The notes under the pieces are model-generated. The model made no database searches. It was not told where the DNA came from and saw nothing but the letters and a program-made list of their open reading frames with translations. The position numbers and the translations under genes are program-made. A stretch of DNA of 64,000 nucleotides from Macrostomum lignano (lineage: Eukaryota), in the NCBI GenBank assembly GCA_002269645.1, contig NIVC01003109.1, forward strand, positions 1 to 64,000. Reading direction: 5' to 3'. This document shows, piece by piece, positions 11,095-63,810 of this stretch; the stretch's first letter is position 1; every line of letters starts with the position of its first letter.

Positions 11095-11880
11095 CTAAAC
11101 CTGTTTTATACGTAAAATTATTGTTATTGACTGCCCACCAAAACTTATTAATCTATCGCTTTCATCTACAATCCTAATATAAATTGATTGAACACTATAT
11201 TGATTTAAAGGATAATATATTGGGGTTTGAGGCGATACAATCATTTTCTCTCCAATTGGAACAGCAAGAAATGGGATTGAATAAATAATTCCACGTTGAA
11301 CCAAAACTCCGTTATCGTCTGTTATATAACCACCGTTTGAAATGTCGGTTGTTATATTAATTGTATTTACTCCACCCTCTATATTTCCAACTGTATCACC
11401 GGTGCTTGATGTGGTAACTATTCGGGAATTAAATCCAAGTATGGTTCTGAGTGAATTTGCAATTGTGAAATCAACCTGATATCCGGATCCTAGTGATAGT
11501 GTGAATCTGCCAGACGGTAAATCAACACCTATAACAATTGCTCCTGCTACCCAATCACCATTAGTTGTTAATTCTCCTTCTATATAAGCATTCAAATCAG
11601 TATAGCTATACGCTCCTGGGTTAACGCTAAATGTTGTCCAATTGGCTCCGGAATCTTTAGAATATCTAAATTGATTATTTGTTGCATTAATTAATTGAGG
11701 CATGTTGAAAACCGAAAATAGTATTAAACCTATTTGATAACTTAGGCTTTGATCAAGTTGTAATGGATCGCGCAATTGAATCCGTTGCTCGCTGGTTGTC
11801 ATTATAAACTGTAATGTTGTACTAAATTTTGAATTAGTTCGATCTACCAATTGTTTTATAGTATTTAAATTTGTAGTCAT
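11095..11880 (-). CDS. mCP: Minor capsid (penton, single jelly-roll) protein
   Basis: Size, position and motifs (NNQFRY, GAYSY.DLN, PIYYPL...IRIVDE..RLISFGG.SITIILRIK) typical of Polinton pentons. Confidence 0.85.
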   Translation of the reverse strand: MTTNLNTIKQLVDRTNSKFSTTLQFIMTTSEQRIQLRDPLQLDQSLSYQIGLILFSVFNMPQLINATNNQFRYSKDSGANWTTFSVNPGAYSYTDLNAYIEGELTTNGDWVAGAIVIGVDLPSGRFTLSLGSGYQVDFTIANSLRTILGFNSRIVTTSSTGDTVGNIEGGVNTINITTDISNGGYITDDNGVLVQRGIIYSIPFLAVPIGEKMIVSPQTPIYYPLNQYSVQSIYIRIVDESDRLISFGGQSITIILRIKQV

Positions 11881-11904
11881 TTTTATAGTGGGAAATTAAT
11901 CGTG

Positions 11905-12699
11905 CTATGTCTCTTCTTCCTCATTATCTTCTTTTATCAAATTTGTTAAAATTCTATGTTTCCTTTCTAACCTCGGATTGATATAAATATGTTTGTATTG
12001 GCTATCATCCCAAATTTTTTTACACATACTTTTAAATGGTTTTGCGTCCAATCCGGGATTAAATCTAGCGTGTATATTTTGTAAATCATAATTATCTAAA
12101 TCAAACATTACACAACAACTTGCATTCTTTTTTATAATCGATTCTAATTCTCTAAAGGATTGAGTAAGATAAAAAGCTCCAATTCCATCTCCTCTACCAC
12201 TAACAAAAATTTCCTTTTGCAATTCTTGATCACCGTCATTAATACAATCATCAAAAATAATTAGTGTTTTATCATGTTTTGGAATTTGATCATAGGCTAA
12301 TCGGGTTGATACTCTAACAGTTGGGGCTCGATCGGACGAAGTCCGCGACCCTTCGGGGCGATCGGTGATGTTTTCTGGCTGTTGTGCCATTGTTTTACAT
12401 AAATCCTCAATGTCTGCTAGATTAAATCGCGGTTCGTCATCATCCTCATATTGCTCATATGCTCTTAACATTCTAAACAAGACATCTTTTTTTAATTTGT
12501 TTTTTAATCCATGTTTAAGAAATTCATAATATTTTATTCTAGGTTTATTAGTATAAATTATTAAATTATTATAGTCTAACATTCCATCTGTTGTTAATAA
12601 ATCGTAAACAAAGTGTGTTTTTCCTTTACCCGACCCTCCGATTACTAAACAAAGAAAAGGATCATTTGGAAATATTTTATTGTGTTTTGCCTTTACCAT
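11905..12699 (-). CDS. ATP: A32/FtsK-like DNA packaging ATPase
   Basis: Walker A GGSGKGKT, Walker B LIIFDD, SGRG...YLTQ motif. Confidence 0.93.
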   Translation of the reverse strand: MVKAKHNKIFPNDPFLCLVIGGSGKGKTHFVYDLLTTDGMLDYNNLIIYTNKPRIKYYEFLKHGLKNKLKKDVLFRMLRAYEQYEDDDEPRFNLADIEDLCKTMAQQPENITDRPEGSRTSSDRAPTVRVSTRLAYDQIPKHDKTLIIFDDCINDGDQELQKEIFVSGRGDGIGAFYLTQSFRELESIIKKNASCCVMFDLDNYDLQNIHARFNPGLDAKPFKSMCKKIWDDSQYKHIYINPRLERKHRILTNLIKEDNEEEET

Positions 12700-12782
12700 T
12701 TTTAAAGAAATAATTTAAATAGGCGCGACGGTCGGAGACCTGCGCCGCTTACAGCGGGGGCGACGTGCTTTGCACTGCGACA

Positions 12783-14255
12783 CTAAAGTGGCGCGTCCCG
12801 AACAATCGTGCCATCAGCTTTAGCAATTGACATATATTCCTCTAGAAACAATACGTGGGCGTCAAGTGCCTGATTACCGGTTTTATTAATCTCTAACATA
12901 TAATTAAGTCCAATATTGGCTACGTTTTCTTTCTGTGCCGTTAGATCATAAACAACCACTGGATGAATGTTTAGAAACTCTGTGGGTGTATACTGAGGGA
13001 CGGCATACGCTTCATTTTTGGCATAATCTTGATAATATTTTATAAAATCATTAACATTATTATTTGCTATATTTAAATTTAGGGGGTCTTTAACCGGATA
13101 ATATTGATCATCAACCTGCAGGCGGATATTCTGAACATTAAACTCGTTAATAGCTGCAGCCGCATTGTCTGTTGCGGTGGCTGCTTGTTCTGCTATGGCA
13201 CCGGATTGAAGCCAATATAAATCCCCATTTGCTCTTTTACTCCTTCTATTTGTTATCTTAAACCAAACAAAAATATATCTCACCCGACGTTTTGATGTCA
13301 GTATTTGCCACTGGAATGAATCCTGGTTATTATTAATGGTTCGCATAAAATGTCGACGATTCAAATAAAATATTTCCTGATCATGCGTTAACTGATTATC
13401 GATGTGTTTTAAAAGTGGGGCTGTTACCTCAATAGTTGGTACGACTAATTGAATTGAATCTATACGAACTGCTATATCGGTTGAAATTGAGGTTCCATAA
13501 AGTATCCTAGGCTGATATCCACCAGATATTTGCAACTGTATCCCAAATTTTAATCCTTTCCATACCCGATTTGGTGAGAAAAACCCAAATAGTGGAAAGA
13601 TTGAAAAGTCCTGCTCATATGCTGTTGCTGTGGTTAAAACCGCGACTGGGAATTTATTCTGACGATCTATAAAACCAGTATTAATATCTTTTGTATTAGT
13701 CATAGTGGTTACAACTGGAACTATGTTTGTATTAAGGTAAACAATTAGCGCTGCAGTATCTGCACCGGCTGCGTTTTGTACATTAGGGAAAACTACTGCT
13801 TGACCGTTACCTTTATCCGGCATCCACCCAACATTATCACCAACTTGTTTTGATAAATAAGTATAATTTAAATGTTTCAAAACTCCATTAATCTCTGCGG
13901 GGTTTGATGATGTCTCAACCTCAGCACCATTAACAGTTAGTTGAGCTTGGGAAAAACATTTATAAAACCAATCATTTTCTATTATTATTCCGGATCGATC
14001 TGCGATATCTCCGGCTGCAAGAGCAGTTCCATCATTTCTAGTATACAACCATCTAACGCGGAAAAACCCATTTTTCATATCCAATATAGTGTTGGTTGCG
14101 CCGATGTCAAAAGTTACCGTTCCAGTAGTAAAGTTATTTGAATTATCACTTGTTGGTAGGGTATAATTTAAATCTCTTGCTCTGACCTCATTAATATACT
14201 GTCGGTGCTTTTTGAAATGAAATTTATCACTCCACATAGTTTTTGTTTCAGCCAT
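12783..14255 (-). CDS. MCP: Major capsid protein (double jelly-roll), 490 aa
   Basis: Intact beta-rich ORF beside ATPase/penton; FSQAQLTVNG.EVE, RYIFVWF, VVYDLT motifs of Polinton MCPs. Confidence 0.85.
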   Translation of the reverse strand: MAETKTMWSDKFHFKKHRQYINEVRARDLNYTLPTSDNSNNFTTGTVTFDIGATNTILDMKNGFFRVRWLYTRNDGTALAAGDIADRSGIIIENDWFYKCFSQAQLTVNGAEVETSSNPAEINGVLKHLNYTYLSKQVGDNVGWMPDKGNGQAVVFPNVQNAAGADTAALIVYLNTNIVPVVTTMTNTKDINTGFIDRQNKFPVAVLTTATAYEQDFSIFPLFGFFSPNRVWKGLKFGIQLQISGGYQPRILYGTSISTDIAVRIDSIQLVVPTIEVTAPLLKHIDNQLTHDQEIFYLNRRHFMRTINNNQDSFQWQILTSKRRVRYIFVWFKITNRRSKRANGDLYWLQSGAIAEQAATATDNAAAAINEFNVQNIRLQVDDQYYPVKDPLNLNIANNNVNDFIKYYQDYAKNEAYAVPQYTPTEFLNIHPVVVYDLTAQKENVANIGLNYMLEINKTGNQALDAHVLFLEEYMSIAKADGTIVRDAPL

Positions 14256-14289
14256 TTTTTTAAGTTAAAAAAGTTTTTTATGTTAAAAA

Positions 14290-14955
14290 ATGAGTCAATT
14301 TATGGACGTTGATGGAGAGTTAGCGATTTATAAAGAGAAGCAAAGATATTCTGATTTTGTTAGAAATTTACAAAAAAGAAAGTTAGGAATACAATTAGCT
14401 GGTGAAAGATTTGCTGCTCCTTTTGTTAATCCTATTACTGGGAAAATTAGTGAACTAGAAAAAACAGATAAAGATCTTCTGGAAAAAATTGCTAAAAATA
14501 CGGAGCCAAAAGATGAGGAGGATGAGCCGCCTGCTTATGATGTTGATCAAGCGCTATTGAGAGTTGCAGAGATTAGACGTGCAGAACGGGGTGAAGTTGA
14601 TGAATATTCGAGAGCTGCACCAACTAGTATTGCTGTGACAGATTTAGGTAATGATAATTATCGAATTGGTGGGGTTGATAAAAATCGAAATGAACTATAT
14701 AGAGAACTGGGTGGAGCATTTAATATTATTATGAACCCTAGGGTAAAATTTAACCCTGAATTATATACTAGGGATGAATTAGTAAGTGCAAAAATTTTTT
14801 ATGATGAGTTGGGAGTAAGAGCTGCTAAAAATACCAGCTTGTATAAAAGGATTGTTAATTCTATAAATAACAAACCAGCTGTTGGAGAAGGATTTAAAAC
14901 ACCACGAAAACTTGTTTTAGCTGCTGCGAAAGCTGCTGGACATACTGGAGTTTAA
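14290..14955 (+). CDS. Polinton conserved-type hypothetical (possibly PZ-like core) protein, 221 aa
   Basis: Intact ORF; N-terminal helical/basic segment and C-terminal GEGF motif; family assignment uncertain. Confidence 0.55.
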   Translation: MSQFMDVDGELAIYKEKQRYSDFVRNLQKRKLGIQLAGERFAAPFVNPITGKISELEKTDKDLLEKIAKNTEPKDEEDEPPAYDVDQALLRVAEIRRAERGEVDEYSRAAPTSIAVTDLGNDNYRIGGVDKNRNELYRELGGAFNIIMNPRVKFNPELYTRDELVSAKIFYDELGVRAAKNTSLYKRIVNSINNKPAVGEGFKTPRKLVLAAAKAAGHTGV

Positions 14956-14982
14956 TTAATTGTTAAATTTATTTTTTATAAA

Positions 14983-15552
14983 ATGGATGAAACAAAAATT
15001 TGTACTACGTGTAAAATTGAGAAACCGATGACTAAAGAATTTTTTTGTTGGAGAAATGACACAAAAAAATTTAAAAATCTTTGTCGATCTTGTGAGAAAG
15101 TTAAATGTACTATGTGGAGAATAAACAATAAAGATAAATGTAATAAATATGCAAAAAATAAATATCGCACTGATGAAAATTTCAAAAATATTAGTCTAAT
15201 TAGAGCTAAAATAACTTGGGCATTGAGAACTTTTCATGACAAACATTATATCTCCTATCTTGGTTGCACAAAAGAATTCTTTTTTGATTGGTTAAATTTC
15301 ACAAGAAATTATTATGTTCCAAAAAATTATACTGGAAAGTTAGATATTGATCATTTCATTCCCGCTTCTTCATTTAATTACAAAGACGATGATCAGATTA
15401 AAAAGTCTGAAAATTGGAGAAATAAAAGATACTTAACTAGCGTAGATAATAACTATAAAAAAGTTAAACAACCAACAATTGAAGAATTTGCGAAACAATT
15501 GGTGCTATCATGTATTTTTAAGGCTATTAAAAATGAACCAAATAGTGTTTGA
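14983..15552 (+). CDS. Free-standing HNH-type endonuclease with N-terminal Cys4 motif, 189 aa
   Basis: CTTC...CRSC, YLGCT, IDHFIP...N...N pattern resembling NCLDV/phage HNH nucleases. Confidence 0.75.
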   Translation: MDETKICTTCKIEKPMTKEFFCWRNDTKKFKNLCRSCEKVKCTMWRINNKDKCNKYAKNKYRTDENFKNISLIRAKITWALRTFHDKHYISYLGCTKEFFFDWLNFTRNYYVPKNYTGKLDIDHFIPASSFNYKDDDQIKKSENWRNKRYLTSVDNNYKKVKQPTIEEFAKQLVLSCIFKAIKNEPNSV

Positions 15553-17110
15553 AGGAGGATTTTTAGACTTACAAAAAGGATTAACGAGCTTACCACCAAT
15601 CTTTACTACTGGTAAATATACAGGGGAACTACACCTACCATCAATGAACTTCACAGGTTAACCCGTGGCCTGAGTGAGGAAGGCAATGTCCTTGCTAGTC
15701 ACTATTTGTGGCGACATCTCCAAATTGCGTGAAACCCGTCATACAGCTTCAAGTACCACTTCAAGTGAGAAATCTTTTGAAGGAACAGAGGTAACTCCTC
15801 TTCCCAAAGGTAAAAAGCTTGAAGACACGGTGGCAATGCGCAGCCAAGCTCCTAAGTATTTTAAATATAAGGAGAAGGTTCAGAGAGCAGACGGAGATGG
15901 GCGGTAATTATCGCCGCTTAAGGTGTGCTCCAGCCTCTTTCGAAAGATTGAGGGTAAACTACCCGGCACTCGCTTAGATTTAAGATTAAATCCTGACAAT
16001 ACTCCAAAATCTGATTCAATTCCAATAAATGGGATTGATTGGTTAGCATACTATCACGACTTAGCATATAGAGATGCTGACAAGAACCCGCCCGAGGAAG
16101 CATTAAGATTAAAACATGAAGCCGATCAAAAAATGATTCAAGGATTAGATAACTTGCAGGGATTATCGGTAGGTCAAAAATTAACTAGGTGGATGGTTAA
16201 AAAGATCTTGCAGTCTAAAGTTAAATTTGGTTTAGGAATTAATTACAACCAACATGGTAATAATTGTGTCGAATGTTTGTTATTAAGTGGTAGTGGGCTA
16301 AGTTATGATAAGGCTAAGGTTCTTCATAAAGAATATCGAAAACCTAAATTTTATAGAAAAATCATGAACTTCAAAAAGAATGAAATTTGGTATGCTGATT
16401 TAATGTCGATGCCGAACGAAAGAGGATATAAATATATCTTAACCATATTAGATGGTTTTACTCGATACGCGTGGGCTGTTCCTTTAAAATCCAAAAAGGG
16501 AGAGGAGGTTGCTGCTGCTTTTAGAAGTCTTGGAGAAAAAAGCGAACGTTTGTGTGTTGACGAAGGAAAAGAATTTTACAATCCTCATATGTATAAATTA
16601 TATCATTTTGAAAAAGGACAAGAAAGGAAAAAAGACGCGAATGGGGAGTATATTAATAAAATTTATTCTATTTATGGAGAGAGTAAAAACGCATTAATAG
16701 AAAGATTTAATAGAACTTTAGGTAAGAAATTATGGTTTCAGTTTAGTCTTAATGCTAACCAAAAATGGGTAAAAATATTACCAGACGTAGTGAAAGATTA
16801 TAACAATTCATATCATTCAGCTATAAAGATGACTCCTCAACAAGCTTATAACAATCCTGAAAATGTTAGGGTTACTTTTGGAAAATTTGAAAAAAAGAAA
16901 ACTAAAGATTTTAAAGTTGGTGATTCTGTTTATATCTATAAATGGAAAGATAAGTTTGAAAAGGGAAGAAAAGGATATTGGAAGATAAGTGAGAAATTTA
17001 CCATCAGTAAAGTTTTAAATACCAATCCTACAACCTATATAATTGCTGATAAGGACGGTGAAGAAATATTGGGTTCTTTTTATGAAAATCAGATATTATC
17101 TGCAAACTAA
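15533..17110 (+). CDS. INT: PLA2-like domain-retroviral-type DDE integrase fusion, 424 aa; exon 1 15533-15658, exon 2 15962-17110
   Basis: Joining the exons in frame restores ELHLPSMNFTG|PGTRL...PIN..D..AYYHDLAY (parvovirus VP1u-type PLA2); integrase D(WYADL), D(VDEGKEF), E(IERFNRTL). Confidence 0.9.
15659..15961 (+). ncRNA. Group I self-splicing intron, subgroup IC1, 303 nt
   Basis: P1 with U.G at 5' splice site; P2.1; P3 CATCTCC/GGAGATG; P AAATTGCGTGAA; Q AATGCGCAGC; P5abc; P6; R GGTTCAGAGAGCA and S AAGGTGTGCTCC (P7 GAGCA/TGCTC); P8; P9 with GAAA loop; removal restores frame and GPGT motif. Confidence 0.92.
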
Positions 17111-17120
17111 GTTCGATCAG

Positions 17121-17345
17121 TTACTTAAGACAACATGGTAGTAAATTTTTTATAACAAACAAAAACAATATTATTACAATAATTGTTACTAATATTATTA
17201 TTGACATTTGTTCAACTGTTATCAAACTTAAATTTTCATTAAGTTCATTAATCGGCACATTTCCGATATAGGAATAGTTTACCTTCATTTTTTTATATAT
17301 ATTTTTCATAATAAAAGTCGTTTCTGTTATAGAATAATAATTCAT
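17121..17345 (-). CDS. Small single-pass membrane protein, 74 aa
   Basis: C-terminal hydrophobic helix IIILVTIIVIILFLFVI followed by PCCLK; A-rich start context. Confidence 0.5.
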   Translation of the reverse strand: MNYYSITETTFIMKNIYKKMKVNYSYIGNVPINELNENLSLITVEQMSIIILVTIIVIILFLFVIKNLLPCCLK

Positions 17346-17361
17346 TTTTTAAATATTTTTT

Positions 17362-17676
17362 TCACATAAAAATTTCACTTTCATTCTCTGAATCGCTGGT
17401 TTCATATGAACTATTTGTTGATTCGGAATCTGTTGATCTAACCTCCCAATCATCCGAATTTAAATAATCTCCAAGTTGAAATATTAACTCACCCTCTTGT
17501 TCTAAATCATACATCTCATCTAGCTCTAATGGATAAAGTTTTAGGTCGTGCTTGTCATCATATTTTAAATAAACTTCATCAATTATTCCATTCAAAATAT
17601 GTTGTTTTATTATCTCTGCATTTTTAGCAACAGTCTCAAAAGTATCACTAACAGAAAAGGTGTAAACTCGGTTCAT
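17362..17676 (-). CDS. Acidic hypothetical protein, 104 aa
   Basis: ATG in TATAAAAAATG context next to right TIR; D/E/S-rich tail. Confidence 0.55.
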   Translation of the reverse strand: MNRVYTFSVSDTFETVAKNAEIIKQHILNGIIDEVYLKYDDKHDLKLYPLELDEMYDLEQEGELIFQLGDYLNSDDWEVRSTDSESTNSSYETSDSENESEIFM

Positions 17677-17693
17677 TTTTTATAACAGAAAAA

Positions 17694-18014
17694 GACCCTT
17701 CGCGCCTGCGGCGCGTGCGACGGGTTCTAGAAAGTTTGTGTGTGTTGGAGAGAGTTAGAAGCGTTGACGATACAAAATACCCAGCAAACCAAAGCGAGCG
17801 ACGAGGGCGTGTTCTCACCATTCAAAAAGAATTAATCGTTGTAAGTGTGAAATGGCCTGTTTGACCGAAATGAAGCGAGGATGAGCGAAGCGAGTTGAGC
17901 GAAGTGAAGACGAGCGAAAATGAAGGGAAACAGGCCATTTCACACTGATAAAGGGTTAAATTGTTTGCAATGGTGAGAATGGTTTGCTGGGTATTTTGTA
18001 TGGTATATACTACT
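17694..18014 (-). repeat. Right terminal inverted repeat (321 bp)
   Basis: Reverse complement of 519-835 with four extra single bases. Confidence 0.95.
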
Positions 18015-18139
18015 TTTGCCAATGTAACGGAGCTTTTGTCTATGGTAGCAAGGCTGGCACAGCGGCATTTAATTTGGTCCAACAAGCATTAACTTGGTCC
18101 ATAGATTCATTTGCAACTGCTGTGGTGGAGCAAGATTAG

Positions 18140-51207: not shown

Positions 51208-51423
51208 TGTTGTGTTTTGTGCTTTGACTCTGTGCTGAGCCGAAAGCTGTTATAACGCGAGCGTAGCTTAAGTTGAATGTATATTTTATTTAACGATATA
51301 AGTAACGGCAAGCCTTTATAGAGTCAGAGTCAGTCGGTAGCTGTTTGGGACACAGACAAATAAATTAACGCTGGGGCAACGACTGAAAATAAAAGTACAT
51401 TGGATTCGGATCGGTATACAACA
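51208..51423 (-). repeat. LTR 1 (216 bp, TGTTG...CAACA); 3'-most LTR
   Basis: Terminal inverted pentamers; PPT GAAGGGGGAC adjacent on minus strand; 2 SNPs versus LTRs 2-4. Confidence 0.92.
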
Positions 51424-51587
51424 TGTCCCCCTTCGAGGGAATGAGAACTGCAACGGAAAAGCGTTGGTGGTTATTGATTAGTGGGTTTGAGTATGAACGG
51501 GTGAGCTTAGGGAGCTTGGTGCTTAACAAAGTAACGGCGAATTCGTTGAAAGTTTGGAATTTAATCAGCGTCTATACTGTTCAGCAA

Positions 51588-54500
51588 TTACGGCACGAAT
51601 CGATCAGGGGCCCGACGATTTCGCGAGCTTCGGCGCATCGGGTTGTCATTCGGTTGCTCTGGGGCATCCTGCTCATGGGTCGTTGGTGCCTGCTCTTCTC
51701 CGGCCGCCATTTGCATCGGGGGCTGTTGCACAGGCAGATTGTCATTCGCTTCCTCTTCGTCCGCTGTAAGGGCGTCCTGCTGTGGCATTGATGGGGCCAA
51801 CTGATTGGTGCTGGCCAGCTTCAGGCTCTCATCTTCTAAAATCCATGCCGTATTGTGTCCAGCAGTCATTAGAAATGTAGCCTGGCTTCCCTGAGTTGAT
51901 TTCTGCGGCTGGTAGATGACGTTGTCTCCTTGCTCGAACTGTGAGACGACCGGTACACGAAGGCGTCTACCAAGCACCAACTCGGCTGGGCACTGGCCGC
52001 GGCTTCTTGAGGAGTTGCGATGGTGCATGATCACTTTTTGCAGGTAGAATAGGAAATCCATGTGAGTTATTCTCTCCGACCATGCACGCAGCGCTGATTT
52101 AACGGTCTGCACTGCCCTTTCTGCGAGGCCGTTTGCCTGAGCATAGTAGGCGGGTGACTCCATTTTCTTCACTCCATGTGCGCGCAGCCATGCGTTGAGG
52201 CTATCGGCCACAAATTCGGGTGGATTGTCTGACACAACCAGTTCCGGCATACCAAAGCGTGCAAAGACGGCGCAGAGGCACCGCTGGACAGTGCTGGCCA
52301 CTCTGTTTTGGCAGGGAAACGCTTCTATCCAGCCAGAATGAGCGTCAACGATAATCAGTATGTCGCCAGCTCCTCTTACATGCGCCCAGTCCATGTGAAT
52401 GCGTTGGAATGGATAGTCCGGGGCGGGCCATCGATCCCTGTCGTGGCCGACACGCGGTCGTAGGCGGCTGCAGACCGGGCAGCGTTGGACAAATCGTGAC
52501 ACATCCTGTTGCATCCCAGGCCACCAGCAAGACGCTGAAAGCAGGTTGTATGAGGCCTGAATTCCAGAGTGGGTGTCATGGATCGCGTCAAAGGCAGCCC
52601 GGCGCAACCGTGGGGGGATGTAAACCCTCCTCTGCATGTAAAGAAGTCCGTTTTCCAGCGTTAGCTTTTCGGAAACGGCTTTGAAGCTTGACTCTGCCTG
52701 CGAGCAACCTTGCCAATTTCCATTGCGTACTCTTATTAAAATCTTCTGGGTGAACGGGTCTGCGTCCATTTCTGCCAAAATTCTTCCGGCCTCGATCACC
52801 GGCGATTCAAATACCACGACGTTGATAGCATCAAACGTTTCCTTGTCGTCTGCTGAAGGGTGATCAAAGCGGAGCCGAGATAAAGCGTCAGCGTGTGGGA
52901 TGTCGCGGCCTCGCACGTACTCGATGTTGAAGTCAAATTGCATGAGATGCGTAGCTTAGCGCCCGATTCTCGCCGATGTGTTCAGAGGGATGCACCGCGG
53001 AAAAGGCGAGTCAGTGGCTGATGATCTGTCTTGATTGTGAAGTGACGGCCATGAAGGAAGTGCTTCAGTCGAGCGACGGCCCAGAAGATGGCGAGGGCCT
53101 CGCGCTCAATATTTGAATAATTTTATTCGGCGGATGACAGCGTCCTTGATACAAATATTACGGGATGCCCTTCCTGAGTCACTACAGCAGCTATTGAGCT
53201 CTTTGAGGCATCCGTTGTTAGAGTCAGCTCCTTTGATAGGCTATAGGGCTGCACTATTGGCGCAGAGGCGATTTCGGCTTTGAGGTTATTAAAAGCTCGA
53301 GAGCACTCGTCGGTCCAGTCAAAGTTGACGTTGGATTTTCGCAGATGGTTAAGAGGAGCGGTCTTTCGAGCGAAGTTCGGAATCAGTCTCCCAAAGAAGT
53401 TGACTAGTCCCAGAAAGCTCGCGAGCTCAGATTTGTTAGTCGGTGCAGAAACTTGTCTGACTTTTTCAACAAGCCGATCGTCTGGCTGGATTCCGGCGGC
53501 AGAGATCTTGAATCCAAGAAAAGAGATGGAATCGGTGTAGTTGATGCACTTGGACTCGTTGATGGTGACGCGCTTTTCTTGTAGTCGGGTGCGCACCGCG
53601 GCAAGGCGCTTTTCTAGAGTAGCCGCATCTGGTGCGTGCACCAGGATGTCGTCTTGATAAATCAGCAGTCCTTTGATGTCTGACAAAATCGATTCCATAG
53701 TTCTCTGGAAGATGAACGAGGCGTTTTTCATCCCCATTTGCAGTCTGTTTACTCGGTACAGTCCACGCGACGTGTTGATGATAGAGATATCTCTGGCCGC
53801 TTCATCCAGTTCAATTTGCCAGTAGGCCGAGCGGAGGTCGACGGTGGCGAAGACTTTTGCGTTTTTCAAGCGTGAGAAAAGGATTTCTACATTGGGGATC
53901 GGATGCGAGTCGGACTTGATTTTCTCATTCACGTGCAGTGCGCTGTAATCGGCACACGTGCGCAAGGTGCCATCTTTCTTTTTCACCCACACCACGGGCG
54001 ACGCCTTGCTCACGGGTCCCTCGATGGGTTCAATTATTCCTAGCTGTTGCAAGCGGTCGAGTTCGGCGTTAATCTGCCCCTCAATTGCAATAGGCACGGA
54101 TCGAGCACGGCAGAATCTGGGTCTGGCACCGTCAACAACCTCCATGCGAGCTTTCACGCCTTTTATGGTAGGCAGTGGCTCAACTACGCGGGTGTTGTTC
54201 TGGGGCACACTTGTGGTGTTAAAGAGGTCCTCCGCGTCCAACAGATCGCGACCAAGTAAGCCATATGGTTTGCTCGAGTTGACCACAATGAGCTCTGCAG
54301 GGTGCAGATGACCTCGTAGTTCAACCGTGGTTGCCAGCTTTCCGAGTGATTTCATCACGTGACCATCAAAGGCTTCTAGCCGCCGAAAACACTTCTGCAG
54401 CGAGGGTCGACCCAGTCGTTCCCATTGCGAACTGGAGAGCACGGAGACGGAGGCGCCTGTATCGATCTGCATGTCGACGGTCTTGCCATCGATAATAAGT

Positions 54501-55408
54501 GGCTCGGTGGCCACGTTGACAGCGTGGACGGTGCCCACGTCGCTGAGATGCATCAGAGAAGTCTTTTTATGTGGCTCATTGTCTATTTCATGAGCTGATG
54601 GGTCAGTGACTTGGTGCACAGGCCGTGCAGATGATGAGCGACATACACTGGCGAAGTGATTTTTCTTACCACATTTTGAACAGAGCTTGCCAAAAGCCGG
54701 GCATTTTCCTTCCGAATGTGCTTTGCCGCAGTAACGACAGTCCTTGACACTCCGATGTCCATTTTGTCGCTGCGAGTAATGCACAGAGGCTTCGTGTGTT
54801 TGGATTGAAGGAGCTGGCTGAGTCAAATTCGCTTGAAAGTCGCTTGATTTTATGGACACAAAAGCTGTCACCTGCTCTAGGTCGCGAATAAAGTCGACAA
54901 TTTCGAGAACCGACTTGAATGATTTGATTTGAGTGGCTTCCAGAACGCGTTGTTGTTGGTTTACATTGCTGAGCCCAGAAATTAGCGCCATTTGGAGCAA
55001 TTCCTCGAGAGGACTGGTGGATGTCTTCAAATCATCAAACTTACAGTCCTTAGCGGCACGACGAAGTCGGCTAACGAAGTCAGAAATTGATTCATTTGGT
55101 GCTTGTCGCATGGCGAAGAAACGAACGCGTTCAGCGATGACCAGCTTTTCCTTTGGCTTTAGGTACGCCTGCACGGCAGTGTTGATTTCATCAAAAGTCA
55201 GGTCGGTCACGGATTTGGGGGCGATTATGCTTTGTATCTTCTCCGAGGCTGTGAGCCCGCAGTGCGCCAAAAAGTTGTCTGCGATGGTCTTCTTTCCATC
55301 ACTATCAGTCCAGTCCTTTGCTCGGGCCAGCGCTTGGAAGGCAGTCATCCAGGTTTGAGCTCGATCGGGCTTCTCCAGCGGCAGTTCGCCAAGTGACTGC
55401 GACGCCAT
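51588..55408 (-). pseudogene. gag-pol copy 1, broken in RNase H (TAA 53123-53125, frameshift ~53000, TAA 52956-52958)
   Basis: CCHC knuckles, protease IDTGAS, RT YQDD, RH TDAS...EREAL, IN HHCC and D,D35E. Confidence 0.92.
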
Positions 55409-55624
55409 TGTTGTGTTTTGTGCTTTGATTCTGTGCTGAGCCGAAAGCTGTTATAACGAGAGCGTAGCTTAAGTTGAATGTATATTTTATTTAACGATAT
55501 AAGTAACGGCAAGCCTTTATAGAGTCAGAGTCAGTCGGTAGCTGTTTGGGACACAGACAAATAAATTAACGCTGGGGCAACGACTGAAAATAAAAGTACA
55601 TTGGATTCGGATCGGTATACAACA
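55409..55624 (-). repeat. LTR 2 (shared)
   Basis: Copy of LTR 1 at +4201; PBS-like TGGCG follows on minus strand. Confidence 0.92.
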
Positions 55625-55788
55625 TGTCCCCCTTCGAGGGAATGAGAACTGCAACGGAAAAGCGTTGGTGGTTATTGATTAGTGGGTTTGAGTATGAACG
55701 GGTGAGCTTAGGGAGCTTGGTGCTTAACAAAGTAACGGCGAATTCGTTGAAAGTTTGGAATTTAATCAGCGTCTATACTGTTCAGCAA

Positions 55789-58700
55789 TTACGGCACGAA
55801 TCGATCAGGGGCCCGACGATTTCGCGAGCTTCGGCGCATCGGGTTGTCATTCGGTTGCTCTGGGGCATCCTGCTCATGGGTCGTTGGTGCCTGCTCTTCT
55901 CCGGCCGCCATTTGCATCGGGGGCTGTTGCACAGGCAGATTGTCATTCGCTTCCTCTTCGTCCGCTGTAAGGGCGTCCTGCTGTGGCATTGATGGGGCCA
56001 ACTGATTGGTGCTGGCCAGCTTCAGGCTCTCATCTTCTAAAATCCATGCCGTATTGTGTCCAGCAGTCATTAGAAATGTAGCCTGGCTTCCCTGAGTTGA
56101 TTTCTGCGGCTGGTAGATGACGTTGTCTCCTTGCTCGAACTGTGAGACGACCGGTACACGAAGGCGTCTACCAAGCACCAACTCGGCTGGGCACTGGCCG
56201 CGGCTTCTTGAGGAGTTGCGATGGTGCATGATCACTTTTTGCAGGTAGAATAGGAAATCCATGTGAGTTATTCTCTCCGACCATGCACGCAGCGCTGATT
56301 TAACGGTCTGCACTGCCCTTTCTGCGAGGCCGTTTGCCTGAGCATAGTAGGCGGGTGACTCCATTTTCTTCACTCCATGTGCGCGCAGCCATGCGTTGAG
56401 GCTATCGGCCACAAATTCGGGTGGATTGTCTGACACAACCAGTTCCGGCATACCAAAGCGTGCAAAGACGGCGCAGAGGCACCGCTGGACAGTGCTGGCC
56501 ACTCTGTTTTGGCAGGGAAACGCTTCTATCCAGCCAGAATGAGCGTCAACGATAATCAGTATGTCGCCAGCTCCTCTTACATGCGCCCAGTCCATGTGAA
56601 TGCGTTGGAATGGATAGTCCGGGGCGGGCCATCGATCCCTGTCGTGGCCGACACGCGGTCGTAGGCGGCTGCAGACCGGGCAGCGTTGGACAAATCGTGA
56701 CACATCCTGTTGCATCCCAGGCCACCAGCAAGACGCTGAAAGCAGGTTGTATGAGGCCTGAATTCCAGAGTGGGTGTCATGGATCGCGTCAAAGGCAGCC
56801 CGGCGCAACCGTGGGGGGATGTAAACCCTCCTCTGCATGTAAAGAAGTCCGTTTTCCAGCGTTAGCTTTTCGGAAACGGCTTTGAAGCTTGACTCTGCCT
56901 GCGAGCAACCTTGCCAATTTCCATTGCGTACTCTTATTAAAATCTTCTGGGTGAACGGGTCTGCGTCCATTTCTGCCAAAATTCTTCCGGCCTCGATCAC
57001 CGGCGATTCAAATACCACGACGTTGATAGCATCAAACGTTTCCTTGTCGTCTGCTGAAGGGTGATCAAAGCGGAGCCGAGATAAAGCGTCAGCGTGTGGG
57101 ATGTCGCGGCCTCGCACGTACTCGATGTTGAAGTCAAATTGCATGAGATGCGTAGCTTAGCGCCCGATTCTCGCCGATGTGTTCAGAGGGATGCACCGCG
57201 GAAAAGGCGAGTCAGTGGCTGATGATCTGTCTTGATTGTGAAGTGACGGCCATGAAGGAAGTGCTTCAGTCGAGCGACGGCCCAGAAGATGGCGAGGGCC
57301 TCGCGCTCAATATTTGAATAATTTTATTCGGCGGATGACAGCGTCCTTGATACAAATATTACGGGATGCCCTTCCTGAGTCACTACAGCAGCTATTGAGC
57401 TCTTTGAGGCATCCGTTGTTAGAGTCAGCTCCTTTGATAGGCTATAGGGCTGCACTATTGGCGCAGAGGCGATTTCGGCTTTGAGGTTATTAAAAGCTCG
57501 AGAGCACTCGTCGGTCCAGTCAAAGTTGACGTTGGATTTTCGCAGATGGTTAAGAGGAGCGGTCTTTCGAGCGAAGTTCGGAATCAGTCTCCCAAAGAAG
57601 TTGACTAGTCCCAGAAAGCTCGCGAGCTCAGATTTGTTAGTCGGTGCAGAAACTTGTCTGACTTTTTCAACAAGCCGATCGTCTGGCTGGATTCCGGCGG
57701 CAGAGATCTTGAATCCAAGAAAAGAGATGGAATCGGTGTAGTTGATGCACTTGGACTCGTTGATGGTGACGCGCTTTTCTTGTAGTCGGGTGCGCACCGC
57801 GGCAAGGCGCTTTTCTAGAGTAGCCGCATCTGGTGCGTGCACCAGGATGTCGTCTTGATAAATCAGCAGTCCTTTGATGTCTGACAAAATCGATTCCATA
57901 GTTCTCTGGAAGATGAACGAGGCGTTTTTCATCCCCATTTGCAGTCTGTTTACTCGGTACAGTCCACGCGACGTGTTGATGATAGAGATATCTCTGGCCG
58001 CTTCATCCAGTTCAATTTGCCAGTAGGCCGAGCGGAGGTCGACGGTGGCGAAGACTTTTGCGTTTTTCAAGCGTGAGAAAAGGATTTCTACATTGGGGAT
58101 CGGATGCGAGTCGGACTTGATTTTCTCATTCACGTGCAGTGCGCTGTAATCGGCACACGTGCGCAAGGTGCCATCTTTCTTTTTCACCCACACCACGGGC
58201 GACGCCTTGCTCACGGGTCCCTCGATGGGTTCAATTATTCCTAGCTGTTGCAAGCGGTCGAGTTCGGCGTTAATCTGCCCCTCAATTGCAATAGGCACGG
58301 ATCGAGCACGGCAGAATCTGGGTCTGGCACCGTCAACAACCTCCATGCGAGCTTTCACGCCTTTTATGGTAGGCAGTGGCTCAACTACGCGGGTGTTGTT
58401 CTGGGGCACACTTGTGGTGTTAAAGAGGTCCTCCGCGTCCAACAGATCGCGACCAAGTAAGCCATATGGTTTGCTCGAGTTGACCACAATGAGCTCTGCA
58501 GGGTGCAGATGACCTCGTAGTTCAACCGTGGTTGCCAGCTTTCCGAGTGATTTCATCACGTGACCATCAAAGGCTTCTAGCCGCCGAAAACACTTCTGCA
58601 GCGAGGGTCGACCCAGTCGTTCCCATTGCGAACTGGAGAGCACGGAGACGGAGGCGCCTGTATCGATCTGCATGTCGACGGTCTTGCCATCGATAATAAG

Positions 58701-59609
58701 TGGCTCGGTGGCCACGTTGACAGCGTGGACGGTGCCCACGTCGCTGAGATGCATCAGAGAAGTCTTTTTATGTGGCTCATTGTCTATTTCATGAGCTGAT
58801 GGGTCAGTGACTTGGTGCACAGGCCGTGCAGATGATGAGCGACATACACTGGCGAAGTGATTTTTCTTACCACATTTTGAACAGAGCTTGCCAAAAGCCG
58901 GGCATTTTCCTTCCGAATGTGCTTTGCCGCAGTAACGACAGTCCTTGACACTCCGATGTCCATTTTGTCGCTGCGAGTAATGCACAGAGGCTTCGTGTGT
59001 TTGGATTGAAGGAGCTGGCTGAGTCAAATTCGCTTGAAAGTCGCTTGATTTTATGGACACAAAAGCTGTCACCTGCTCTAGGTCGCGAATAAAGTCGACA
59101 ATTTCGAGAACCGACTTGAATGATTTGATTTGAGTGGCTTCCAGAACGCGTTGTTGTTGGTTTACATTGCTGAGCCCAGAAATTAGCGCCATTTGGAGCA
59201 ATTCCTCGAGAGGACTGGTGGATGTCTTCAAATCATCAAACTTACAGTCCTTAGCGGCACGACGAAGTCGGCTAACGAAGTCAGAAATTGATTCATTTGG
59301 TGCTTGTCGCATGGCGAAGAAACGAACGCGTTCAGCGATGACCAGCTTTTCCTTTGGCTTTAGGTACGCCTGCACGGCAGTGTTGATTTCATCAAAAGTC
59401 AGGTCGGTCACGGATTTGGGGGCGATTATGCTTTGTATCTTCTCCGAGGCTGTGAGCCCGCAGTGCGCCAAAAAGTTGTCTGCGATGGTCTTCTTTCCAT
59501 CACTATCAGTCCAGTCCTTTGCTCGGGCCAGCGCTTGGAAGGCAGTCATCCAGGTTTGAGCTCGATCGGGCTTCTCCAGCGGCAGTTCGCCAAGTGACTG
59601 CGACGCCAT
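55789..59609 (-). pseudogene. gag-pol copy 2, same lesions
   Basis: Translated ORFs identical to copy 1. Confidence 0.92.
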
Positions 59610-59825
59610 TGTTGTGTTTTGTGCTTTGATTCTGTGCTGAGCCGAAAGCTGTTATAACGAGAGCGTAGCTTAAGTTGAATGTATATTTTATTTAACGATA
59701 TAAGTAACGGCAAGCCTTTATAGAGTCAGAGTCAGTCGGTAGCTGTTTGGGACACAGACAAATAAATTAACGCTGGGGCAACGACTGAAAATAAAAGTAC
59801 ATTGGATTCGGATCGGTATACAACA
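59610..59825 (-). repeat. LTR 3 (shared)
   Basis: Identical to LTR 2. Confidence 0.92.
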
Positions 59826-59989
59826 TGTCCCCCTTCGAGGGAATGAGAACTGCAACGGAAAAGCGTTGGTGGTTATTGATTAGTGGGTTTGAGTATGAAC
59901 GGGTGAGCTTAGGGAGCTTGGTGCTTAACAAAGTAACGGCGAATTCGTTGAAAGTTTGGAATTTAATCAGCGTCTATACTGTTCAGCAA

Positions 59990-62900
59990 TTACGGCACGA
60001 ATCGATCAGGGGCCCGACGATTTCGCGAGCTTCGGCGCATCGGGTTGTCATTCGGTTGCTCTGGGGCATCCTGCTCATGGGTCGTTGGTGCCTGCTCTTC
60101 TCCGGCCGCCATTTGCATCGGGGGCTGTTGCACAGGCAGATTGTCATTCGCTTCCTCTTCGTCCGCTGTAAGGGCGTCCTGCTGTGGCATTGATGGGGCC
60201 AACTGATTGGTGCTGGCCAGCTTCAGGCTCTCATCTTCTAAAATCCATGCCGTATTGTGTCCAGCAGTCATTAGAAATGTAGCCTGGCTTCCCTGAGTTG
60301 ATTTCTGCGGCTGGTAGATGACGTTGTCTCCTTGCTCGAACTGTGAGACGACCGGTACACGAAGGCGTCTACCAAGCACCAACTCGGCTGGGCACTGGCC
60401 GCGGCTTCTTGAGGAGTTGCGATGGTGCATGATCACTTTTTGCAGGTAGAATAGGAAATCCATGTGAGTTATTCTCTCCGACCATGCACGCAGCGCTGAT
60501 TTAACGGTCTGCACTGCCCTTTCTGCGAGGCCGTTTGCCTGAGCATAGTAGGCGGGTGACTCCATTTTCTTCACTCCATGTGCGCGCAGCCATGCGTTGA
60601 GGCTATCGGCCACAAATTCGGGTGGATTGTCTGACACAACCAGTTCCGGCATACCAAAGCGTGCAAAGACGGCGCAGAGGCACCGCTGGACAGTGCTGGC
60701 CACTCTGTTTTGGCAGGGAAACGCTTCTATCCAGCCAGAATGAGCGTCAACGATAATCAGTATGTCGCCAGCTCCTCTTACATGCGCCCAGTCCATGTGA
60801 ATGCGTTGGAATGGATAGTCCGGGGCGGGCCATCGATCCCTGTCGTGGCCGACACGCGGTCGTAGGCGGCTGCAGACCGGGCAGCGTTGGACAAATCGTG
60901 ACACATCCTGTTGCATCCCAGGCCACCAGCAAGACGCTGAAAGCAGGTTGTATGAGGCCTGAATTCCAGAGTGGGTGTCATGGATCGCGTCAAAGGCAGC
61001 CCGGCGCAACCGTGGGGGGATGTAAACCCTCCTCTGCATGTAAAGAAGTCCGTTTTCCAGCGTTAGCTTTTCGGAAACGGCTTTGAAGCTTGACTCTGCC
61101 TGCGAGCAACCTTGCCAATTTCCATTGCGTACTCTTATTAAAATCTTCTGGGTGAACGGGTCTGCGTCCATTTCTGCCAAAATTCTTCCGGCCTCGATCA
61201 CCGGCGATTCAAATACCACGACGTTGATAGCATCAAACGTTTCCTTGTCGTCTGCTGAAGGGTGATCAAAGCGGAGCCGAGATAAAGCGTCAGCGTGTGG
61301 GATGTCGCGGCCTCGCACGTACTCGATGTTGAAGTCAAATTGCATGAGATGCGTAGCTTAGCGCCCGATTCTCGCCGATGTGTTCAGAGGGATGCACCGC
61401 GGAAAAGGCGAGTCAGTGGCTGATGATCTGTCTTGATTGTGAAGTGACGGCCATGAAGGAAGTGCTTCAGTCGAGCGACGGCCCAGAAGATGGCGAGGGC
61501 CTCGCGCTCAATATTTGAATAATTTTATTCGGCGGATGACAGCGTCCTTGATACAAATATTACGGGATGCCCTTCCTGAGTCACTACAGCAGCTATTGAG
61601 CTCTTTGAGGCATCCGTTGTTAGAGTCAGCTCCTTTGATAGGCTATAGGGCTGCACTATTGGCGCAGAGGCGATTTCGGCTTTGAGGTTATTAAAAGCTC
61701 GAGAGCACTCGTCGGTCCAGTCAAAGTTGACGTTGGATTTTCGCAGATGGTTAAGAGGAGCGGTCTTTCGAGCGAAGTTCGGAATCAGTCTCCCAAAGAA
61801 GTTGACTAGTCCCAGAAAGCTCGCGAGCTCAGATTTGTTAGTCGGTGCAGAAACTTGTCTGACTTTTTCAACAAGCCGATCGTCTGGCTGGATTCCGGCG
61901 GCAGAGATCTTGAATCCAAGAAAAGAGATGGAATCGGTGTAGTTGATGCACTTGGACTCGTTGATGGTGACGCGCTTTTCTTGTAGTCGGGTGCGCACCG
62001 CGGCAAGGCGCTTTTCTAGAGTAGCCGCATCTGGTGCGTGCACCAGGATGTCGTCTTGATAAATCAGCAGTCCTTTGATGTCTGACAAAATCGATTCCAT
62101 AGTTCTCTGGAAGATGAACGAGGCGTTTTTCATCCCCATTTGCAGTCTGTTTACTCGGTACAGTCCACGCGACGTGTTGATGATAGAGATATCTCTGGCC
62201 GCTTCATCCAGTTCAATTTGCCAGTAGGCCGAGCGGAGGTCGACGGTGGCGAAGACTTTTGCGTTTTTCAAGCGTGAGAAAAGGATTTCTACATTGGGGA
62301 TCGGATGCGAGTCGGACTTGATTTTCTCATTCACGTGCAGTGCGCTGTAATCGGCACACGTGCGCAAGGTGCCATCTTTCTTTTTCACCCACACCACGGG
62401 CGACGCCTTGCTCACGGGTCCCTCGATGGGTTCAATTATTCCTAGCTGTTGCAAGCGGTCGAGTTCGGCGTTAATCTGCCCCTCAATTGCAATAGGCACG
62501 GATCGAGCACGGCAGAATCTGGGTCTGGCACCGTCAACAACCTCCATGCGAGCTTTCACGCCTTTTATGGTAGGCAGTGGCTCAACTACGCGGGTGTTGT
62601 TCTGGGGCACACTTGTGGTGTTAAAGAGGTCCTCCGCGTCCAACAGATCGCGACCAAGTAAGCCATATGGTTTGCTCGAGTTGACCACAATGAGCTCTGC
62701 AGGGTGCAGATGACCTCGTAGTTCAACCGTGGTTGCCAGCTTTCCGAGTGATTTCATCACGTGACCATCAAAGGCTTCTAGCCGCCGAAAACACTTCTGC
62801 AGCGAGGGTCGACCCAGTCGTTCCCATTGCGAACTGGAGAGCACGGAGACGGAGGCGCCTGTATCGATCTGCATGTCGACGGTCTTGCCATCGATAATAA

Positions 62901-63810
62901 GTGGCTCGGTGGCCACGTTGACAGCGTGGACGGTGCCCACGTCGCTGAGATGCATCAGAGAAGTCTTTTTATGTGGCTCATTGTCTATTTCATGAGCTGA
63001 TGGGTCAGTGACTTGGTGCACAGGCCGTGCAGATGATGAGCGACATACACTGGCGAAGTGATTTTTCTTACCACATTTTGAACAGAGCTTGCCAAAAGCC
63101 GGGCATTTTCCTTCCGAATGTGCTTTGCCGCAGTAACGACAGTCCTTGACACTCCGATGTCCATTTTGTCGCTGCGAGTAATGCACAGAGGCTTCGTGTG
63201 TTTGGATTGAAGGAGCTGGCTGAGTCAAATTCGCTTGAAAGTCGCTTGATTTTATGGACACAAAAGCTGTCACCTGCTCTAGGTCGCGAATAAAGTCGAC
63301 AATTTCGAGAACCGACTTGAATGATTTGATTTGAGTGGCTTCCAGAACGCGTTGTTGTTGGTTTACATTGCTGAGCCCAGAAATTAGCGCCATTTGGAGC
63401 AATTCCTCGAGAGGACTGGTGGATGTCTTCAAATCATCAAACTTACAGTCCTTAGCGGCACGACGAAGTCGGCTAACGAAGTCAGAAATTGATTCATTTG
63501 GTGCTTGTCGCATGGCGAAGAAACGAACGCGTTCAGCGATGACCAGCTTTTCCTTTGGCTTTAGGTACGCCTGCACGGCAGTGTTGATTTCATCAAAAGT
63601 CAGGTCGGTCACGGATTTGGGGGCGATTATGCTTTGTATCTTCTCCGAGGCTGTGAGCCCGCAGTGCGCCAAAAAGTTGTCTGCGATGGTCTTCTTTCCA
63701 TCACTATCAGTCCAGTCCTTTGCTCGGGCCAGCGCTTGGAAGGCAGTCATCCAGGTTTGAGCTCGATCGGGCTTCTCCAGCGGCAGTTCGCCAAGTGACT
63801 GCGACGCCAT
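59990..63810 (-). pseudogene. gag-pol copy 3, same lesions
   Basis: Translated ORFs identical to copy 1. Confidence 0.92.

Follow-up and report, generated by a model that had tools for sequence, protein, structure and literature searches.

A group I intron was found in a protein-coding gene of a Polinton, a eukaryotic transposon-virus, integrated in the nuclear genome of the flatworm Macrostomum lignano. The DNA analyzed here, termed the window, comprises positions 1 to 64,000 (forward strand) of contig NIVC01003109.1 (assembly GCA_002269645.1). Within it, a block of 303 nt (15659..15961) separates the two exons of the PLA2-integrase gene of a 17.5-kb element; all intron and exon coordinates refer to the forward strand. 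The block contains no open reading frame (ORF), is IC1-like and terminates in A. Group I introns have already been published from giant viruses and from protist Polinton-like viruses (PLVs); no case in an animal nuclear Polinton was found in the literature searched. The family behaved as a mobile group I intron in every testable feature, the window copy departing from it by its missing terminal G. Probably, the intron splices itself out when the element is expressed; in the majority form, the pairings P9.0 and P10 would replace the terminal G. Its spread would occur through homing by an Eco47II-like nuclease acting in cis or in trans.

Fold of the intron and the gene it interrupts

A first-pass annotation had read the block by eye as a group I intron of subgroup IC1. 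Every motif it named was present where it had been placed, and the block indeed measured 303 nt. The Rfam model RF00028 matched over its full length at 15649-15952 (62.2 bits, E 1.8e-15, 501 bases scanned; gathering cut-off 50 bits). This match was filter dependent, and RF00028 scans of the whole window and of 500-18100 did not detect the intron. When candidates from the genome were scored with the model, 28/28 exceeded the cut-off (72.7-91 bits), and a joint scan of 12 loci matched four, leaving the IC1-like copies L031 and L098 and three copies of a second intron lineage (see below) without a match. Since standard Rfam scans miss these copies, other animals may harbor such introns unnoticed. 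The block had a G+C content of 46%, compared to 31% and 36% in its 300-nt flanks. Folding energy was only modestly unusual for the intron as a whole (z -2.16), with a value of z -2.58 for the P4-P6 part.

The group I assignment was borne out by covariation among 45 distinct copies. Changes on both sides of a pair were found in 14 of 92 pairs, versus 1-4 in six controls with pairing partners slid by 1-3 places; the copies are related and hence not independent in this count. Two-sided changes were present in P3, P4, and P7. The proportion of paired cells, 94.8%, is a favored figure, as the window copy had served as the template for the structure; harder evidence comes from the compensations, four in succession in P2 and three in P7.

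At the intron's 5' splice site, the exon end (15654-58) pairs with the guide (15668-72) to form P1 (15654..15672) in the predicted fold. Its U15658.G15668 pair was kept in 45/45 distinct copies, as was the guanosine-site pair G15885-C15930, which the first-pass annotation had described as intact. A P10 pairing of the guide at 15662-67 with 15962-67 is possible (4/6 pairs). P2 (15673-96) and P2.1 (15698-712) follow in the pair table (15673..15712); P2 showed four adjacent two-sided changes in 14/45 distinct copies, and P2.1 was conserved, its loop being the site of a nuclease ORF in sister introns (L084, L464-L488). According to the Rfam alignment, pair table, and fold, P3 (15715-21/15893-99) encloses the P4-P6 domain (within 15715..15899), which comprises P4, P5, P5abc, P6, and P6a/b with a receptor-like motif. 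P4 was present at 15726-31/15837-42, a register slightly different from that first proposed. For P5, the earlier pairing CCGT/ACGG had to be replaced by 15736-15742/15827-15833, the register in the Rfam alignment, with which variants among the copies agree. The A-rich bulge of P5abc lies at 15812-16 and the GAAA loop at 15769-72. The pair table further contains P7 (15883..15931), with bulged A15884 and the guanosine-site pair, P8 (15900-15918), and a 3' segment (15932..15961) consisting of P9.0 (15932-33/15959-60), a P9 hairpin with a GAAA loop (15934-53), and the terminal A15961. In L084, three P7 pairs were altered on both sides. The P9.0 pairs A15932-U15960 and G15933-C15959 point to A15961.

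Hallmarks of IC1 introns are a P5abc with an A-rich bulge, P2/P2.1, a P5b GAAA loop with an 11-nt receptor in P6a/b, and, in Tetrahymena, P9.1/P9.2 with P13. The peripheral part of the subgroup assignment held: P2 and P2.1 lie between P1 and P3, and P5abc with its A-rich P5a bulge has the same layout as in the rDNA introns L363 and L367. The receptor-like motif is a one-base variant in the window copy, the usual form being found in some other copies (L077, L084, L091, L097). Because the P9.1/P9.2 extension is absent from the window copy, with just 8 nt from P9 to the 3' end, we call the intron IC1-like and not IC1. Introns of five copies (L031, L033, L059, L093, and L098) were ∼30 nt longer than the window copy.

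Within the PLA2 loop, the intron separates the Gly codon from the Pro codon. By translation, exon 1 (15533..15658) comprises 42 codons and overlaps at its start the end of an upstream HNH-like ORF; the same start occurs in the intron-less alleles L067 and L068. Exon 2 (15962..17110), which begins with PGT in 61/64 copies, encodes what remains of the PLA2-like domain in fusion with an rve integrase (PF00665, E 1.6e-7, 31.9 bits against a cut-off of 32.6). Since exon 2 runs in frame into the integrase up to 17110, the interrupted gene is the PLA2-integrase fusion of the element and not a host gene. In some copies, 33 nt containing two small hairpins are inserted where exon 1 starts (window 15536/15537).

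The Polinton itself (519..18014) is bounded by terminal inverted repeats of ∼300 bp and a 6-bp duplication (513-518 and 18015-18020), and its pPolB (PF03175) and packaging ATPase (PF04665) exceeded their Pfam cut-offs. The terminal repeats matched by 100% in segments, which indicates young insertions. On the same contig, a ribosomal protein S2 (uS5) gene (32019..32984, reverse strand) aligned along the full query with a Macrostomum lignano protein at 96% identity, compared to 77% for the next named match. The Polinton and its intron are thus integrated in the nuclear genome of a Macrostomum flatworm, as the first-pass annotation had assumed for an animal. A chimeric contig or a microbial contaminant would fit the otherwise microbial and viral occurrence of group I introns (PMC3679873). 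Its likelihood is practically negligible, given the target duplication around intact terminal repeats, the flatworm gene on the contig, copies spread over well above 100 contigs of up to 1.5 Mb, and the presence of the stretch in 18 sequencing runs from 6 studies under a single organism label.

Copies, intron-less alleles and the terminal base

An 18-base core motif of the window-type intron occurred at least 141 times in the genome and not once in the control, and a second intron lineage was represented by 24 copies at the same 5' site. For comparison of loci, 70 of 150 exon-2 matches among 502 protein-search candidates were examined and 30 of 40 matches from another search were added, which after removal of 15 duplicates yielded 85 loci. 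These comprised 64 complete window-type introns, 10 introns of the second lineage, 9 intron-less alleles, and 2 truncated loci. The intron-less alleles, which the first-pass annotation had suggested looking for, belong to a close (L067-L069) and a distant (L081-83, L085-87) Polinton family. In all of them the Gly codon runs straight into the Pro codon, and these natural alleles thereby fix both ends of the intron. Three scanned intron-less alleles all matched the PLA2-like Pfam domain PF08398. A junction pattern search of the genome retrieved just three intron-less alleles of the close family; an allele bearing the window copy's own junction letters gave 0 matches. With 141 and 24 cores versus three intron-less alleles, the intron is near fixation.

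The second lineage (L061-L066, L070, L071, L092, and L099; for example, L062 965-1295) has a different P3/P4/P6/P7 core and a related P2, P2.1, and P5abc; scanned alone, it scored 32.7 bits with RF00028, below the cut-off. Its guide pairs best (7/9) with a 3' exon that would lose the Pro-Gly of the PLA2 loop. One P2 variant (L038, L044, L072, L089, and others; compare window 15673-15696) was common to both lineages, which suggests that modules may have been swapped between ribozymes. In L099, ∼830 nt of unrelated DNA are inserted in the P8 region (∼430-1210), and L086 (reverse strand) retains a truncated 5' intron fragment (∼555-600) upstream of an intron-less PLA2 copy.

The final intron base was A in 45/64 copies, including the window copy, and G in 19/64. 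Both positions of P9.0 were paired in 30/30 distinct A-ending copies versus 8/15 G-ending ones, the remaining 7/15 pairing only one. A-ending introns thus form the majority, and they are present in diverged sub-lineages. Since the terminal A adjoins five synonymous starts of exon 2, it is not an accident of a single copy; the window copy is a variant lacking the terminal G in a family that has G-ending members. The Gs at 15952-54 were considered as an upstream 3' splice site and ruled out, as they lie within P9 and the intron end is fixed by the intron-less alleles. P10 and P9.0 help to define the 3' splice site of group I introns (PMC6155759), and the coral mitochondrial intron ND5-717, which lacks a terminal G, yields ligated exons in vivo with lower efficiency (PMC6545197). 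The first-pass annotation had overlooked the terminal A, together with the second lineage, the nuclease-bearing sister introns, the adjoining nuclease gene, and the published introns of protist PLVs (PMC12220804).

Both exons were under purifying selection in intron-bearing copies, whichever the final base. Among copies with full cover, free of frameshifts and stops, pN/pS in the 57 codons of exon 2 before the first internal Met was 0.09 (terminal A) and 0.08 (terminal G), and 0.20 (A) and 0.32 (G) in exon 1. Splicing may be deduced from this selection. Within the top 30 copies, the intron showed the lowest diversity of six parts (1.05%, the others 3.4-11.4%), a ranking favored by the intron-centered query that had selected these copies.

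Removal by the spliceosome would leave the ribozyme fold a relic. For this, the window copy offers a cryptic GT at 15657 and an AG at 15976-77 as an in-frame pair of 321 nt, the sole such option found in it. The required AG was present in only 41/64 copies, however, the codons that would be lost are conserved (PGTRLDL in 57/64), and the catalytic core is invariant or covarying, which together make this explanation very unlikely.

Nucleases and the origin of the intron

Directly upstream of exon 1, a free-standing ORF of 189 amino acids (14983..15552, forward strand) had no match in Pfam and resembled endonuclease VII/HNH in PHROGs (E 0.001-0.003); by tblastn, it matched ORFs inside the giant-virus introns L360 and L365 (E ∼6e-12). 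In other Polinton copies, this slot is occupied by an Eco47II-like nuclease. In the distant Polinton family, the exon 2 of which is ∼57% identical, the intron extends to ∼880 nt and has its P2.1 loop occupied by an ORF that exceeded the cut-off for Pfam RE_Eco47II (PF09553). The genome contained 108 matches to this nuclease. In the top 25 loci, it was located just 3' of the 5' splice site (25/25), and all introns with a 3' end terminated in G (24/24); in the next five, it was free-standing upstream of exon 1 and ∼65% identical. The residues D-E-K were intact in 17/17 open intronic and 14/14 open free copies (31 open among 41 checked), and pN/pS was 0.42 for intronic and 0.28 for free copies. 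The 37 free copies listed all had sufficient space for an intron (37/37). Of the seven distant-family loci fetched, six were intron-less, and the sole intron-bearing one has the nuclease.

Outside this genome, 6/12 Eco47II-like homologs ended in a translated P3-P4-P5abc of the same intron, five of them at E 2e-7 or better and one at 0.002. The proteins with such translated-ribozyme tails (P0123-P0126, P0130, and P0132) are from ENA/JGI; one cluster had 30 members, with contigs of up to 65 kb. These tails indicate that a nuclease-bearing family of the intron exists in other assemblies, and the window copy is most plausibly a nuclease-less derivative. The idea that a free nuclease had jumped into the intron inside the Macrostomum genome was dropped after a nuclease tree and the outside read-through homologs. 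Relatives of the Polinton PLA2 or of the nuclease were absent from the viral contigs searched, and exact protein look-ups matched 0/8. Neighbors in atlas searches were viral clusters and restriction enzyme-like proteins, which serve as leads only.

The P6/P7 core pattern recurred in at least 121 viral and at least 123 metagenome stretches. Only 3 of 243 such loci had rRNA motifs; among the 158 long ones, we attribute the motifs of 102 to capsid, RNA polymerase, or VLTF3 genes of giant viruses, which leaves 56 unclassed. The outside introns fetched had 0 hits to a PLA2 or Polinton gene beside them. A 44-row tree (5 own introns, 36 best outside hits, and 3 rDNA introns) placed the flatworm introns in a single clade (100/100), itself contained in a 97/97 clade made up of introns from RPB1 and VLTF3 genes and of unclassed ones. 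A forced grouping with the three rDNA introns, a small sample, was rejected (AU p 0.023). The first-pass annotation had proposed capture of an rDNA-type intron from a microbial eukaryote, which these results do not bear out: the nearest relatives found are introns of giant-virus protein genes. A giant-virus origin is therefore likely on sequence grounds, within the limits of collections that are virus-rich and rDNA-poor. The P5abc pattern had 0 matches in viral contigs, phage genomes gave only four weak 48-nt matches, and matches to a loose P2.1 pattern were mostly due to chance. The same ribozyme core was very frequent in giant-virus capsid, RPB1, RPB2, and VLTF3 genes (L221-L463), often with GIY-YIG/HNH ORFs, and one outside intron has the unusual P7 letters of the window copy.

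These affinities bear on the question of where the ribozyme acts. It might be active only during the virus phase of the element, for instance inside the factory of a giant virus or in a different host cell, with the flatworm nucleus merely storing copies. The closest introns and the relatives of the HNH-like gene come from giant viruses, the nuclease-bearing intron family recurs in outside assemblies, and PLVs have been proposed to be parasites of giant viruses (PMC11296320). Against this stand insertions that are young and numerous, the existence of three capsid-like relatives of the Polinton protein, and the fact that no giant virus of a Macrostomum host was seen in this analysis. We regard an exclusive virus-phase activity as improbable; it shares the ribozyme mechanism with self-splicing in the flatworm, overlaps with it, and differs only in the place of action.

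Proposed splicing and spread, precedents and neighboring features

In the scenario we favor, a mobile, giant virus-related family of group I introns colonized a single position within the PLA2-integrase gene carried by Macrostomum Polintons and would persist by removing itself from the pre-mRNA whenever the element is expressed. Free guanosine bound at G15885-C15930 would cut after U15658 in P1; P10 and P9.0 would then align the 3' site, and the exons would be joined. In the A-ending majority form, the fully paired P9.0 together with P10 may stand in for the terminal G, probably at the cost of a slower second step. Spread among Polinton copies would occur by homing, most likely via the Eco47II-like PD-(D/E)xK nuclease, supplied from within P2.1 in the sister family and from the free-standing upstream gene in many copies of the window family.

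Several observations weigh against this scenario. The terminal G, near-universal in group I introns, is missing in the window copy. The copies are mosaic, and relatives that end in G or are intron-less could be the source of the selection seen on the exons. Within the initial 171 nt of exon 2, frameshifts affected 9/45 A-ending versus 0/18 G-ending copies (Fisher p 0.05), and within the HNH-like gene 12/33 versus 0/13 (p 0.011); they were mainly single-base homopolymer losses concentrated in few contigs, and many G-ending copies had been chosen by a protein search biased toward open frames. Of the 18 sequencing runs, 14 are RNA by guess only, and in 3/4 guessed-RNA runs contigs crossed the 3' intron-exon boundary unspliced (among the pieces listed, of unknown strand and possibly DNA). 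A spliced joint was found in none of the pieces listed for 4/4 runs from four studies, the contigs of which, built at 90% likeness, drop rare forms; nor did any piece listed extend over 31 letters on both sides of the 5' boundary. These contigs document an unspliced form in the libraries and do not prove that splicing is absent; they are no evidence either way. As to homing, the HNH-like gene was present in all three intron-less alleles of the close family, which makes its protein the weaker candidate for cutting the insertion site. The 37/37 association of free Eco47II-like genes with room for an intron has little power, intron-less alleles being rare, and a tree of 26 nucleases separated intronic, free, and outside clades without giving the order or direction between these forms.

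In an alternative account, the A-ending introns would be passengers that are dead or close to it: full-length protein would come only from G-ending and intron-less copies, A-ending elements would be moved in trans, and the apparent selection on their exons would stem from homing or recombination. The lacking terminal G, the excess of frameshifts in A-ending copies, the unspliced 3' boundary, the split of the window copy's pPolB region over several frames, and the mosaic sharing of P2 between lineages all speak for it. However, the core is invariant, P9.0 is completely paired in 30/30 distinct A-ending versus 8/15 G-ending copies, pN/pS is the same with A and G, and A-ending introns prevail, also in diverged sub-lineages; moreover, the frameshifts resemble assembly errors in a biased sample. 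On this evidence we consider the passenger alternative unlikely, and self-splicing of the majority form the better account.

A farther-reaching interpretation is conceivable, if on balance doubtful. Flatworm cells would splice group I ribozymes from nuclear protein-coding transcripts, the A-ending form would be a selected, slow-splicing limiter of the Polinton integrase, and two ribozyme lineages and two unrelated nucleases would compete for a single site by homing between integrated copies. This would amount to a phage-like homing cycle within the genome of an animal and to a route for giant-virus ribozymes into animal germ lines.

To our knowledge, the group I introns of animals are mitochondrial. 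The hexacoral intron ND5-717 resembles the Macrostomum intron in lying in an animal protein gene and lacking a terminal G, and its exons are still ligated at reduced efficiency (PMC6545197); in contrast, it is mitochondrial, fixed, and obligatory, whereas the Macrostomum intron is nuclear and mobile and occurs in A- and G-ending forms in one genome. Closest in setting are the RF00028 introns of ∼300-380 nt in PLVs of Rhodomonas lacustris, Paulinella micropora, and Desmodesmus armatus, which likewise interrupt a gene belonging to an endogenous Polinton-type element of a eukaryotic nuclear genome (PMC12220804). As described there, they are confined to a small number of protist groups and reside in a short gene, unannotated and located upstream of that for the capsid; no nuclease is assigned to them. 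The Macrostomum introns differ by their animal host, the PLA2-integrase gene, two lineages at one site, a mostly terminal A, and a nuclease located within the intron or next to it. With giant-virus introns such as those in polr2a/polr2b of Bodo saltans virus, they share the P6/P7 core, the P5abc layout, the side-by-side occurrence of nuclease-bearing and nuclease-less forms, and the targeting of essential viral protein genes (PMC5871332). The giant-virus introns, however, reside in RNA polymerase and capsid genes of cytoplasmic viruses and have HNH or GIY-YIG nucleases (PMC5871332), unlike the Eco47II-like nuclease of Macrostomum.

Nuclear rDNA introns of the Tetrahymena type share P2, P2.1, the A-rich bulge of P5abc, the GAAA loop, and the receptor-like motif (PMC3679873), and the core pattern recurs in three introns of eukaryotic small-subunit rDNA. 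They belong to microbial rRNA genes, whereas the Macrostomum intron lies in a protein gene, lacks P9.1/P9.2, and stood apart from the three rDNA introns sampled. Finally, a nuclease-less intron adjoining a free-standing nuclease gene recalls the collaborative homing that PMC11296320 describes for phages. The Macrostomum system differs from it as a eukaryotic transposon-virus whose slot is filled by either of two unrelated nucleases, one also being intronic, with a predicted homing role. Two other Polinton papers (bioRxiv 2023.08.22.554363 and PMC11296320) mention group I introns only in passing. The literature searched listed no group I intron from the nuclear DNA of an animal or from an animal Polinton, subscription journals being mostly outside its coverage.

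At least 165 copies in a nuclear protein gene of a flatworm stand against the statement of a review that nuclear group I introns are confined to microbial rRNA genes (PMC3679873). The same genome supplies natural controls in the form of empty alleles, A- and G-ending introns, two ribozyme cores, and nucleases inside or beside the intron. These make testable the splicing of a group I intron from mRNA in an animal nucleus, the choice of a 3' site without a terminal G, and the movement of a homing nuclease between intronic and free-standing positions. They bear on why animal nuclei and nuclear mRNAs lack group I introns, and point to an exchange of genes between giant viruses and the Polintons of animals, as well as to the Eco47II-like family as homing nucleases.

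The ORFs at 12783-14255 (capsid-like) and 10366-10863 had no informative Pfam hit, and three homologs were found for the former; we presume them to encode a capsid protein and a maturation protease, respectively, from their position and sequence motifs. The pPolB region and a repeat-rich fiber-like gene (2510-6126 and 8737-10355) were broken across several frames, which is either real or an assembly error. A perfect 30-bp inverted repeat lies immediately internal to the left terminal repeat (876-981), with weak matches to microRNA families far under the cut-off. Downstream of the Polinton, the window contains a strongly G-skewed low-complexity array (25001-31000) and three tandem 4.2-kb units of an LTR retrotransposon with gag-pol and integrase region (51423-63810).

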